A stretch of 4,550 bases of DNA from a virus (lineage: Duplodnaviria; Heunggongvirae; Uroviricota; Caudoviricetes), in IMG/VR virus record IMGVR_UViG_2547132270_000007, one strand, 5' to 3'. Positions 1,368-4,360 of the stretch are shown one piece after another (the first letter of the stretch is position 1; the number at the start of each line of letters is the position of its first letter). The notes under the pieces are model-generated. The model did no database searches, was not told where the DNA came from, and worked only from the letters and a program-made list of their open reading frames with translations. The position numbers and the translations under genes were made by a program.

Positions 1368-1643
1368 ATGACATTAGATGAATATTTGAAAAAAAATCGT
1401 GTACGACAGTCTTGTTTGGCCGCGCTGGCTGGTTGTTCGCAATCAATGATTAGCCTCGTTGCTACTGGACGTAGTCAGTTAAGCCCTGAAAAGGTATTGC
1501 GTATCGCAGAGGCTACGAATTTCGAGGTTACACCTCATGAACTCCGGCCTGATATCTACCCGAATCCGACCGATGGTTTACCTGTTGGATGTAAGGCTAA
1601 CACACAAAATGCACAGGAGTTGATTCATGAAAATCAGGCATGA
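1368..1643 (+). CDS. ydaS: Cro-like HTH regulator, YdaS family, 91 aa
   Basis: ORF track 1341-1643. Preferred start is ATG 1368 with SD AAGGTGA (1356-1362) 5 nt upstream; the TTG at 1341 would fall inside the predicted promoter. HTH region QSCLAALAGCSQSMISLVATGRSQLS. First rightward gene after the divergent promoter; overlaps the next gene by 17 nt. Confidence 0.85.
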   Translation: MTLDEYLKKNRVRQSCLAALAGCSQSMISLVATGRSQLSPEKVLRIAEATNFEVTPHELRPDIYPNPTDGLPVGCKANTQNAQELIHENQA

Positions 1644-2049
1644 GCACATCGAATCAGTGCTGTTAGCCCTGGCCGCTGAAAAAGGGCAGGCGTGGGTTGC
1701 TAACGCAATTACTGAAGAATATCTGCGCCAGGGGGGCGGCGAATTGCCCCTGGTACCAGGCAAGGACTGGAATAATCAGCAGAATATCTATCACCGATGG
1801 TTGAAAGGTGAAACAAAAGCGCAAAGGGAAAAAATTCAGAAGCTGATCCCAGCAATTCTGGCAATCCTTCCGCGCGAGCTGCGTCACCGACTCTGCATCT
1901 TCGATACCCTGGAACGCCGTGCATTACTGGCGGCGCAGGAAGCGTTAAGTACGGCAATTGATGCGCATGATGATGCTGTCCAGGCCGTTTACCGGAAAGC
2001 GCATTTCAGCGGCGGTGGTTCGTCCGGCGATTCTGTTGTTGTTCATTAA
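1627..2049 (+). CDS. ydaT: YdaT-family protein (CII-position regulator, historically called a toxin), 140 aa
   Basis: ATG 1627 with SD AGGAG (1615-1619) 7 nt upstream. 140 aa, same length as Rac YdaT; begins MKIRHEHI and ends SGDSVVVH. Sits directly after the Cro-like gene with a 17-nt overlap. Confidence 0.88.
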   Translation: MKIRHEHIESVLLALAAEKGQAWVANAITEEYLRQGGGELPLVPGKDWNNQQNIYHRWLKGETKAQREKIQKLIPAILAILPRELRHRLCIFDTLERRALLAAQEALSTAIDAHDDAVQAVYRKAHFSGGGSSGDSVVVH

Positions 2050-2068: not shown

Positions 2069-2482
2069 ATGAAAATCAAACCGTTTATCAATGCTGGAAA
2101 TCTTACTCCCGGCGAACTACGAGACTGGATCCTGAAACTTGCAAAAAATGCAGAAATTGCGGGTTGGGGTACAGAAACTTCGGTTCGGAAGCTTCAGAGC
2201 GCAGAACTTAGCCTGCGCTCAGTTATGGACGATTTATCCCCAAGAATTAATTTTCTGGGGTCAGAGCAAATAATTCGTTCGGAAGGTCACTCCAGCGAAG
2301 TTGCGGAAGTTCTGAATACTCTGAGGATAACTTTTGCTGCCGTTCGCGATATTCAACGAACCATTCTCTCATTGATTTCTCAGCTTCAAGAAATTGATAG
2401 TCGCATTCCTGACGGGGGGCATAGAGAGCGTCTTCCAGAATGTGAAGAGCAAGGACAGGGGAAACAGATAAGGGATCAGTAA
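2069..2482 (+). CDS. Hypothetical protein, 137 aa, no family recognised (conflicts with antisense ORF 2247-2702)
   Basis: ATG 19 nt after the ydaT stop, weak SD-like AGGGT 8 nt upstream. Predicted helical protein with acidic C-terminal tail. Around 10 percent rare codons (ATA, AGG, AGA, CGA, GGG). Overlaps the minus-strand ORF by 236 bp, so at most one is likely to be real. Confidence 0.4.
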   Translation: MKIKPFINAGNLTPGELRDWILKLAKNAEIAGWGTETSVRKLQSAELSLRSVMDDLSPRINFLGSEQIIRSEGHSSEVAEVLNTLRITFAAVRDIQRTILSLISQLQEIDSRIPDGGHRERLPECEEQGQGKQIRDQ

Positions 2483-2781: not shown

Positions 2782-3906
2782 ATGGTTAAGGCTAAAAACA
2801 TGCCAAATCCCATGCCAAAAACTAAGGCAAACAATGAGCCTTATCGCAAGGTAAAAATAACGATATGGGATGATCCCAAATTTAGGGCGTTATCTCCTCT
2901 GCCTCCAAGTGGACAGAGTTTGTTTATTTATCTGCTGACCAGTCCATTTACCGGGATTATTCCCGGGTTGTTTAAAGCCGGGCGGGCAGCAATGGCTGAA
3001 GAGTTGGGGTGGGATATTGAAGCCTTTGACTTAGCCTTAGGCGAAGCCATGAAGCTTGGCATGGTGAAAGCAGATATCAAAGCCAGAGTTTTTTGGCTCC
3101 CGAATGCTGCGAAACACAATCCGCCAAACTCGATAAATGTCATTAAATCTTGGGCAAAGGCATTCGCTTTAATTCCTGATTGCCCTCTCAAATGGGAGGC
3201 CAGGGAATCGCTGAGAGCGGCGTCCTACGGGGTTTCTGAGGCTTTGGGGATGGCATTCGATAAGGCAATCCCTTTGCCTGAGGATAAGCCTAAGGATAAG
3301 GCTAACGCTTTGTCATGCGGTATCCAGATAACAGATAACAGATATATAAACCCCACACATAACGCGCGCGTGCGCGAGAGTGCTCTGACCAGTGAGTCGA
3401 ATGATTTGCCGTTACAGGCAGCGGAACCTGATTACCTGGAAGGCCTGAGCGAACCCATCGGGAAATTTCCGATGACCGATGGCTGGCATCCGTCGCCGGA
3501 TTTCCGACGGCGGGCTGCACTGTGGGGAGTGGCTCTGCCGGAGCCGGAATTTACACCTGCTGAACTTGCCGCCTTCCGGGACTACTGGGCAGCGGAGGGG
3601 AAAGTTTTCACGCAGGTTCAGTGGGAGCAGAAATTCGCCCGTCACGTAAATCACGTCAGGGCGCAGGTTAAACCAGTCAGCAAGGGGGTGAACCATGCAG
3701 CAGCACCAGGTGGCACCGCATCACGGGCAGTTCAGGAAATTCGGGCAGCACGTGAGCAGTGGGAACGTGAAAACGGATTTATCCGCGACGGAAACGGCGT
3801 GGAAGCTGTGGGAACTCATGGGGGAGGTTTATTCGAACCGCTGGACCCAGAAGAACGGGGCCGCACCTTCGAAGCTCTGGATTGCACAGATTGGCGCGAT
3901 GACTGA
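2782..3906 (+). CDS. Phage replication initiation protein with DnaT-like C-terminal domain, about 374 aa
   Basis: ORF track 2728-3906 begins at a TTG with no SD. Preferred start is in-frame ATG 2782 with GAGG 5 nt upstream (ATG 2800 is an alternative). N-terminal region WDDPKFRALS...LFIYLLT looks like a phage replisome-organiser DNA-binding domain; a low-complexity linker follows; then a DnaT-like motif (WHPSPDF...FRDYWAAEGKVFTQVQWEQKFARHV). Sits immediately upstream of a lambda-P-like gene. Confidence 0.85.
   Translation: MVKAKNMPNPMPKTKANNEPYRKVKITIWDDPKFRALSPLPPSGQSLFIYLLTSPFTGIIPGLFKAGRAAMAEELGWDIEAFDLALGEAMKLGMVKADIKARVFWLPNAAKHNPPNSINVIKSWAKAFALIPDCPLKWEARESLRAASYGVSEALGMAFDKAIPLPEDKPKDKANALSCGIQITDNRYINPTHNARVRESALTSESNDLPLQAAEPDYLEGLSEPIGKFPMTDGWHPSPDFRRRAALWGVALPEPEFTPAELAAFRDYWAAEGKVFTQVQWEQKFARHVNHVRAQVKPVSKGVNHAAAPGGTASRAVQEIRAAREQWERENGFIRDGNGVEAVGTHGGGLFEPLDPEERGRTFEALDCTDWRDD
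3259..3380. repeat. Origin-like repeat cluster inside the initiator gene linker (candidate ori)
   Basis: GATAAGGC (3259-3266); tandem GGATAAGCCTAA / GGATAAGGCTAA (3282-3305); tandem CAGATAA CAGATAA CAGATAT (3325-3345); AT-rich TATATAAA; then an alternating CG tract CGCGCGCGTGCGCG (3363-3376). The order (iterons, AT-rich, GC-rich) parallels lambda ori, which lies within the O gene. Confidence 0.4.
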
Positions 3907-4360
3907 GCAGCAAATCCGGCAGGTCTGCCGCCAGTGCATGGACCGTTGCAGGGCAGGTGAAACATGGCCTCCGGACCTGGCTGAGTTTGTGGCGCTGATT
4001 TCGGAGAGCGGGGCAAATCCATTTGGTCTGACGGTGGATAACGTGATGGAGGAATATCGCCGCTGGCGCAATGAGTCCTGGCGATACGACGGGAGTGATA
4101 AATACCCGTGGTCTCAGCCCGTGCTGTATCACATTTGCCTCGAGATGCGGGCAAAAGGGATTGAGCGTCAGATGACCGAAGGGGAGTTAAAACGACTTGC
4201 AGAACGGCAACTGGCGAAATGGGCAAAGCTTGTTGGTGACGGCTTCAGCGTTCCGCCCGTCCGGCGGCAACTGGTAGCACCAAAACGCCCGTCGGGGCCA
4301 ACTCCAATTGAGTTGCTGAAACAGGAATATGAACGCCGGAAAGCGGCTGGGTTTGTTTGA
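3695..4360 (+). CDS. Lambda P-family replication protein (DnaB helicase loader), up to 221 aa
   Basis: Recalled lambda P sequence aligns by eye over the C-terminal two thirds (ours [10 protein letters not shown]...YPWSQ...[11 protein letters not shown]...PPVRRQL vs lambda PSPGQFVAW...YPWKS...LTDAELRRKAA...EPVKQL). ATG 3695 has a strong SD (AAGGGGGTG, 6-nt spacing) and gives near-lambda-P length. Alternative in-frame starts are ATG 3818 and ATG 3899; the weak similarity seen upstream of residue 69 argues against 3899. Confidence 0.85.

Follow-up and report, generated by a model that had tools for sequence, protein, structure and literature searches.

In several phage gene pairs, such as Rz/Rz1 of lambda as well as D/E and A/B/K of phiX174, one stretch of DNA encodes two proteins in different frames, with one frame locally dominating and with the overprinted stretches being disordered or biased in composition. 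Mostly, one of these genes is embedded in the other, and one partner is evolutionarily young. Long overlaps of bacterial genes on the same strand usually are annotation errors, and a survey of 338 prokaryotic genomes found no real co-directional overlap of more than 60 bp, the longest real ones being 32–56 bp (PMC2478687). Here we describe a same-strand case of 149–227 nucleotides (nt), which is conserved in Enterobacterales prophages as well as in Vibrio phages and joins the genes of a replication initiator and a helicase loader. It is contained in a stretch of 4,550 nt (hereafter ‘the window’) from a virus of the Caudoviricetes (IMG/VR record IMGVR_UViG_2547132270_000007), which represents the immunity/replication region of a Rac-like lambdoid prophage according to its listed open reading frames (ORFs), Pfam and BLAST.

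In phage lambda, the C-terminal region of the initiator O is considered to be the domain that binds P, and the N-terminal part of the loader P the one that binds O, and an amber mutation in O that removes the last five residues abolishes activity (PMC6022878). P itself consists of a disordered N-terminal ‘lasso’ domain I (residues 1–29), domain II (residues 30–119), domain III and a C-terminal lasso (PMC12661323). In the window, the initiator gene and a gene for a lambda-P-like loader share 212 nt in different frames (table 1). As far as sequence comparison can tell, this is probably an ancient and genuine dual-coding overlap, in which the loader would have its own, independent start at ATG 3695. 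The gene families are already known and the loader form of 221 residues is already produced by some gene callers; about one in four complete E. coli genomes carries the overlap module, and the overlap is overlooked in most database annotations. A description of it was not found in the literature searched, in a search of limited coverage.

Geometry and conservation of the overlap

The initiator ORF runs in a single frame through to its TGA at 3904–3906. ATG 3695, from which the +1-frame ORF extends to 4360, is the earliest possible start of the latter, with an in-frame TGA (3689–3691) one codon ahead and a run of five Gs (G5; 3684–3688) six bases ahead of the ATG; in addition to the ATGs at 3818 and 3899, a further in-frame ATG lies at 3938. 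A first-pass annotation made from the sequence alone had suggested a possible overlap of about 210 bp between the initiator and a P-like gene in different frames, and every coordinate that it gave was verified in the sequence. An initiator from 2782 to 3906 is likewise annotated in PP818812, a 97% identical record; the GenBank phage records closest to the window are 92–97% identical.

A locus scan with one genome per species yielded 37 Enterobacterales loci, ranging from Escherichia to Yersinia, Serratia, Erwinia, Pectobacterium and Rahnella. In 33 of them, the initiator ORF overlaps the loader ORF by 149–227 nt, with the loader always in the +1 frame and with the initiator stop 29–101 nt (mostly 65–68 nt) further on, counted from the first base of the Trp codon conserved in W..KNG. 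Of 5426 complete E. coli genomes, 1253 contain the 441-nt stretch that surrounds the overlap, with as many as six places in a single genome, and the module sits at 3–4 places per chromosome in the E. coli O157:H7 strains listed. Vibrio phage D67 possesses an unrelated initiator of the HTH_36/DnaD_N type, which ends with HQEERGGSFIDLDNGDWSSK directly before its stop codon, and a loader ORF of 219 residues (annotated 333 nt too late); these also overlap by 212 nt, and an overlap of the same kind is found in Vibrio phage 1.247.B.

Since this arrangement is conserved across species, a sequencing frameshift in a single window, which the first-pass annotation had considered as an alternative, is excluded. 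Judged from these comparisons, the overlap is genuine, i.e. neither a sequencing error nor a chance extension of an ORF. It is also very improbable that the two frames are joined by a pseudogenizing frameshift or by a programmed frameshift that would generate an initiator–loader fusion. In two database proteins that combine DnaT and P, P0120 (298 residues) and P0106 (385 residues), a frameshift does link the DnaT domain and the first half of the tail to the loader, close to the position at which dominance passes from one frame to the other (see below), but the same two-ORF arrangement is present in the 1253 E. coli genomes and in 33 species-level loci. Moreover, a +1 slip at G5 would meet TGA 3689–3691 at once and a −1 slip would enter the third frame rather than that of the loader; no special RNA structure and no Rfam element was found, with no systematic scan for slippery sites having been made. 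Taking P0120 and P0106 as an ancestral fusion or as products of programmed frameshifting was rejected, as both have additional breaks of frame at the 3′ end and resemble prophage genes in decay.

The loader, selection on the two frames and the loader start

The loader matches the lambda P family PF06992 with 58.6 bits (cut-off 26; residues 56–188 against profile positions 28–161 of 162), and a profile search matches the lambda P chains 8v9t and 8v9s. By family membership it is a helicase loader of the lambda P type, for which binding and loading of host DnaB is predicted. In its AlphaFold2 (AF2) model, residues 1–27 have predicted local distance difference test (pLDDT) scores below 50, helices span residues 29 to 181, with confident helices at 29–46, 48–54, 60–67 and 71–86, and a linker at 192–198 (again with pLDDT below 50) is followed by a C-terminal helix (204–217). 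The first three helices (residues 29–67) are coded by 3779–3895. Best matches in Foldseek are full-length chains of lambda P from its complex with DnaB (220 columns aligned to 9oa1_Z at E 7e-6), and the model of the loader of 221 residues is collinear with the four-part plan of lambda P, i.e. a disordered N-terminal arm, domain II, domain III and C-terminal arm. In an alignment of 29 homologues (46–78% identity), the conserved part of the loader opens at about residue 35 with the block AWxLWExMGEIYSNRWTxKNGxxPSxLWIAQIG; W50, K53, N54, G55, P58 and W62, which are invariant, are all located upstream of Met69, which corresponds to ATG 3899.

Frame dominance switches near 3797, both between species and within populations, with the initiator dominating before and the loader after this point. 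Along loader residues 1–34, entropy is highest at loader codon position 2, which is position 3 of the initiator, and the amino-acid entropy of the loader is 2.3 bits; past residue 34, variability peaks at loader position 3, the same as in the non-overlapping part. Within populations, as represented by 67 closely related haplotypes from IMG/VR, 11 polymorphisms at 3695–3796 are silent in the initiator only versus 5 in the loader only, and at 3797–3906, 18 are silent in the loader only versus 5 in the initiator only. Per-site nucleotide diversity in these haplotypes is 0.015 in the first and 0.021 in the second half of the overlap, i.e. 3–5 times below that of the flanks (0.095 in the initiator-only flank and 0.057 in the loader-only part).

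In the second half, the loader sequence YSNRWTxKNG largely forces the other frame to read [LIV][FL][KQE][SP][LMV]D.[KQE][KE][WR], and conservation of this tail motif alone thus proves little. Outside the overlap, the median pair of loader genes agrees at only 42% of synonymous third positions, which means that the 29 lineages are near-independent at synonymous sites. Within the overlap, the loader uses TCG for Ser in 14 of 16 cases (expected fraction 0.20, p 1e-8) and AAG for Lys in 26 of 29 (expected fraction 0.38, p 9e-9), both giving Glu in the initiator, and GGG for Gly in 12 of 14 (expected fraction 0.25, p 3e-6), which gives initiator Gly instead of Arg. When synonymous loader codons were redrawn with each loader protein kept fixed, the resampled initiator frame usually ran into a stop about 4 nt short of the Trp codon; the actual initiator frame is open through the acidic motif in all 29 of 29 lineages, with a chance of 0.2–0.66 for each and of about 1e-12 jointly. 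The converse test, in which the initiator protein was fixed, gave a weaker result: the loader frame would be open in the first half with a mean chance of 0.63 per locus, or about 1e-8 jointly. Both frames are under purifying selection, with the initiator frame being selected even where the loader dominates.

Orphan lambda-P-like genes with no initiator upstream were observed beside host genes in two Erwinia loci (L030, 2492–3118; L037, 2471–3040), where their neighbours are a TtcA-like gene and a phosphotransferase system (PTS)-transporter-like gene. They provide a natural control for selection on the initiator frame: in these orphan loaders, the segment AWRLWDLM... is kept and the second frame contains stops as well as Lys or Gln in place of Glu.

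Where the loader begins is annotated inconsistently. A start at 3899, within the sequence ATGACTGA, or at 3938 would imply an 8-nt termination–reinitiation junction, with the +1-frame conservation upstream being just a by-product of the initiator tail. This is the choice made for RefSeq E. coli and two GenBank phages (PP818812 and KU052037; 153 residues from 3899) as well as for one further GenBank phage (LC567818; 140 residues from 3938), and the junction is of the ATGA type known from lambda O/P. It would, however, be most surprising if this were correct: at least the first three predicted helices would be lost with either start and, with a start at 3899, residues 1–68 including the invariant ones, even though the upstream loader frame has the codon statistics of coding DNA (position 3 most variable, 18 of 28 polymorphisms silent in the loader only), orphan loaders without an overlapping initiator keep the upstream segment and lambda P aligns over its whole length. 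Moreover, conservation and helices extend up to 120 nt upstream of 3899, and no Shine–Dalgarno (SD) sequence precedes ATG 3899 in the window (duplex with the 16S 3′ end −3.1 kcal/mol). The start at 3899, which the first-pass annotation had listed as an option, is therefore contradicted by loader conservation beginning near 3797 and by a predicted fold beginning at residue 29. The same annotation had named loader conservation restricted to the part past 3899, together with initiator homologues ending near 3906 in a conserved tail, as the finding that would speak against a long overlap; the homologue alignment has loader conservation begin at about 3797, and a recognisable tail is indeed present where the initiator homologues end, near 3906, which indicates that both frames are real.

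The far-upstream ATG stands out by its ribosome-binding site. Across the 37 loci, the mean 16S duplex is −8.7 kcal/mol at equivalents of ATG 3695 (84% at −6 or below), −5.3 kcal/mol at equivalents of ATG 3818, i.e. loader Met42 (46%), −3.9 kcal/mol at 3899-type ATGs (12%) and −2.8 kcal/mol at background positions (12%). GGAGG, GGAGGT, GAGG or GGGGG, mostly GGAGG, precedes the far-upstream ATG at normal spacing. As the initiator residues across this motif vary (GG, RG, GE, EV, GD and others) and the purine motif (codons GGA GGT) is kept, selection there acts on nucleotides. Database homologues of 212–223 residues, with identity down to 48%, start at the ATG equivalent to 3695, others of 180–181 residues start at the equivalent of 3818, and some begin at ‘MAW’, five codons ahead of Met42. 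GTG codons at 3710, 3752 and 3767 were discarded as loader starts, since their positions are not conserved in other loci.

A loader starting at ATG 3818, with 3695–3817 being open but untranslated, or two isoforms made from both starts, is the alternative that deserves most attention and still seems unlikely. An ATG is found at this position in 35 of the 37 loci, NCBI lists a ‘replication protein P’ of 180–181 residues from this codon in Salmonella, Citrobacter, Klebsiella and others, a moderate SD-like TGGGAG is located upstream, and the residues that would be dispensed with are variable (1–34) and partly predicted to be disordered (1–27). Yet two loci (L024 and L026) have no ATG there, and TGGGAG is explained by conserved Trp–Glu codons and is only about 3 nt away from the ATG. 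The AWxLW motif and the onset of helix 29–46 are upstream of this ATG, as is the ‘MAW’ start of some homologues, and neither the conserved strong SD and ATG about 150 nt upstream of the Trp codon nor the loader frame being open upstream in every locus would find an explanation. Of what the first-pass annotation had listed for 3818, the ATG and the 89-nt overlap do exist, but a start there would cut predicted helix 1. Its preference for ATG 3695 as the best start is favoured by the conserved SD, the starts of homologues and the maintenance of the overlap across species. We infer that ATG 3695 is probably the start used in vivo, with 3818 possibly being used too.

RNA folding at the loader ribosome-binding site is unremarkable (z −0.4), which leaves sequestration of this site by RNA structure as a coupling mechanism unsupported, and Rfam as well as promoter and terminator scans of the region gave no match.

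Tail and loader as a mosaic unit

The initiator matches the DnaT domain PF17948 at residues 229–295 (65.2 bits, cut-off 25), and this domain is predicted by AF2 with pLDDT values of 85–91. An AF2 model of a C-terminal fragment of 168 residues shows the DnaT domain, a disordered linker, one helix (residues 107–124 of the fragment) and then 43 residues with pLDDT values of 31–38. The initiator-frame motif (G/A)ES.A.QQ(I/L/V)R.A.E.W.RE is common to several initiator types, and the overlying loader residues vary. The first-pass annotation had described the tail as Gly-rich and of low complexity, which holds for the Gly-rich end, but the tail also contains the conserved helix motif and an acidic disordered end that is under selection. 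The tail of 77 residues as the sole query in a word-indexed protein search returned just eight fragments; an exhaustive HMMER search gave 27 matches, including a few low-complexity giants, and a modest gain in diversity. That the end of the tail, ALDCTDW, resembles LDLTNTDW at the C-terminus of lambda O was set aside as evidence of homology, because this pattern is largely forced by the loader LWIAQIG codons.

Initiators that carry this tail are diverse. Their Pfam types include DnaT (PF17948), the lambda-O type Phage_rep_O (PF04492), HTH_36/DnaD_N and DUF1376, with several having no match. In the initiators of D67, L020, L022 and L024 (Phage_rep_O, HTH_36/DnaD_N and one DUF1376), BLAST finds similarity only to about residues 293–374 of the window initiator, the region overlapped by the loader, whose start is at residue 305, and alignments with about 30% identity reach somewhat further upstream in L021, L023 and L032. 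Conversely, initiators with a DnaT domain 83% identical to that of the window can bear a different tail, which ends with HVNHIRGKSKNVGKSDELDWNNTDWIEGVWDEINSRTSQ before the stop codon; these part from the window just after ...ARHVNH(V/I)R, i.e. about 30 nt before the window SD. A second type of cassette, found in locus L045, combines a near-identical DnaT domain with a C-terminal motif resembling that of lambda O, ELDWNNTDWIEGV, and with a P of the lambda type. This P shows 39% identity to lambda P over residues 1–199 and aligns to the window loader only at residues 82–221 of the latter. The L045-type tail matches the C-terminus of lambda O, which ends with KLDLTNTDWIYGVDL at its stop codon (LDLTNTDWIYGVDL), the motif LD..N.TDWI.GV being common to both. 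The type of tail co-varies with the type of the N-terminal half of the loader, and the overlapped segment and the loader gene behave as one mosaic unit.

Deletion variants were also encountered (P0200 and P0201), in which the tail is joined to a truncated DnaT domain and the loader SD and ATG are lost. These as well as P0120 and P0106 may be decaying prophages or else informative natural mutants.

In the dual-coding arrangement with a loader start at 3695, which we favour, one transcript of the early operon would bear the initiator ORF, which would be read to TGA 3906, and independent entry of ribosomes at the SD and ATG (3682–3697) inside this ORF would produce the loader of 221 residues from the +1 frame. 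The shared 212 nt would give the last 70 residues of the initiator, i.e. linker, amphipathic helix and disordered acidic end, and at the same time the first 70 residues of the loader, i.e. a disordered arm followed by three helices of the equivalent of lambda P domain II. With the disordered end of each protein being located over the structured part of the other, this fits a mutual extension of two older genes and not a new gene arising inside an old one. The tail would be the loader-docking element of the initiator, comparable to the C-terminus of lambda O with regard to P, and recombination just upstream of 3682 would set the ‘tail + loader’ cassette behind any origin-binding module. By analogy with lambda, we tentatively suggest that the 212 nt might encode both sides of the interface, with the loader gene bearing an overprinted docking tail for the upstream origin-binding protein.

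Several points weigh against this picture. Loader residues 1–34 are poorly conserved and could be a tolerated leader instead of a functional arm, and the near-invariance of Met42 (ATG 3818) in a weak SD-like context makes a shorter isoform possible. The end of the tail varies by lineage (from +29 to +101 nt after the Trp codon), and its last residues are weakly constrained. The tail pattern in the second half, [LIV]x[EQK][PS][LVM]D.[EQK][EK][RW], is mostly forced by the loader, and it is only the residual codon choice that argues for independent selection. With unremarkable folding at the ribosome-binding site, no coupling mechanism is evident, and the suggested binding between tail and loader is argued from analogy and covariation only.

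If the proposal is true, ‘tail + loader’ is an indivisible plug-in cassette, by which lambdoid and Vibrio phages can swap origin specificity with helicase recruitment remaining intact. The loader-specific tail of the initiator appears physically locked to the loader gene, such that an exchange of origin modules cannot part the partners—a rule of mosaicism that is testable.

Gene context and comparison with known systems

Table 1. Features of the window and of the second cassette type (positions in the window unless a locus is given)
Feature	Position	Strand	Basis or remark
Repressor, dicA/racR-like	799–1263	minus	
Small helix-turn-helix (HTH) gene	end at 1643		
YdaT-family gene	1627–2049		
ORF, no assigned function	2069–2482	+	
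Replication initiator (‘phage replisome organizer’), 374 residues from ATG 2782	2782–3906	+	ORF list; open from 2728
DnaT-like single-stranded DNA-binding domain of the initiator	3466–3666	+	Pfam; last initiator part outside the shared cassette
SD-like AAGGGGGT, inside the initiator ORF, six bases ahead of ATG 3695	3682–3689	+	duplex with 16S 3′ end −11.8 kcal/mol
Lambda-P-like helicase loader, 221 residues at proposed full length	3695–4360	+	Pfam PF06992; homologue starts
Dual-coding overlap, 212 nt	3695–3906	+	initiator residues 305–374 (frame 0) / loader residues 1–70 (frame +1)
Overlap, first half	3695–3796	+	initiator linker and helix motif (~3718–3771) / variable loader N-terminus, residues 1–34
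Overlap, second half	3797–3906	+	mostly loader helices 1–3 / initiator disordered Gly-rich, then acidic end
In-frame ATG, loader Met42	3818–3820	+	possible secondary start; 89-nt overlap
ATGACTGA junction	3899–3906	+	RefSeq E. coli loader start (153 residues) joined to initiator stop TGA 3904–3906
Second cassette type: DnaT domain, lambda-O-like C-terminal motif ELDWNNTDWIEGV, lambda-type P	L045, 2501–4079		29-nt overlap

Upstream of the replication genes, the ORF at 2069–2482 (137 residues) overlaps by 236 nt with a long ORF on the opposite strand (2247–2702, minus, 151 residues); the two are the hypothetical proteins gp12 and gp13 in PP818812, and neither has a Pfam match. A perfect inverted repeat of 10 nt, TGTCGAACCT / AGGTTCGACA (2702–2711 / 2757–2766), which is located directly upstream of the initiator ATG, could be an operator or an RNA hairpin. 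Inside the initiator gene of the window, between its N-terminal part and the DnaT domain, a family of 18-nt direct repeats in three copies (GATAAGGCAATCCCTTTG and variants) with partly palindromic relatives (3149–3312) is followed by CAGATAACAGATAACAGATATATAAA (~3326–3351). By its resemblance to iterons and an AT-rich unwinding stretch, the region 3149–3351 may be a candidate origin of the prophage, comparable to that in lambda O.

The record PP818812.1 (L001), designated ‘Actinobacillus phage vB_Apl-pPE4’ with Actinobacillus pleuropneumoniae as the recorded host, is 97% identical over 1.7 kb to the module of more than 1200 E. coli genomes; this identity casts doubt on the assigned host or on whether the isolate was pure.

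For annotation, it matters that the loader is listed with 221–223, 180–181, 153 or 140 residues (L046, NZ_CP148463.1; P0002, P0022, P0025, P0036), and that the RefSeq E. coli version of 153 residues (P0025) is recorded on at least 1000 contigs. This ‘replication protein P’ probably lacks the first 68 residues, including the part expected to contact the initiator.

Compared with lambda O–P, the gene order with the initiator preceding the loader in the early right operon is the same, the loader belongs to PF06992 and has a collinear predicted structure, and lambda O is likewise a mosaic gene, whose N-terminal, ori-binding half can be exchanged. In contrast to the 212 nt in the window, however, lambda O and P overlap by 4 nt (ATGA) only; the first ~80 residues of the window loader have no sequence similarity to lambda P, with BLAST aligning just residues 86–199; the window initiator has a DnaT domain in place of lambda O's C-terminal domain; and its tail comprises ~70 residues as compared with the short LDLTNTDWIYGVDL end of lambda O. 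The ydaU–ydaV region of the K-12-type Rac prophage shares the order of a dicA/racR-like repressor, a ydaS/dicC-like gene, ydaT, initiator and loader, and phage Rac-SA53 labels its initiator and loader genes ydaU and ydaV, these names being positional only. Yet the K-12-type initiator shows no significant similarity to that of the window, and its loader is DnaC-like and separated by a 6-nt gap; the idea of using this initiator as a relative paired with a non-P loader was dropped, as the proteins are unrelated and the comparison is uninformative.

With holD/rimI, the window shares a co-directional overlap conserved in enterobacteria, but the overlaps of the window type are 149–227 nt long. In contrast to Rz/Rz1 and the phiX174 pairs, finally, the window combines two old and unrelated genes, with the disordered end of each lying over the structured end of the other, and the overlapped segment is moved as a cassette by recombination, with different genes preceding it.

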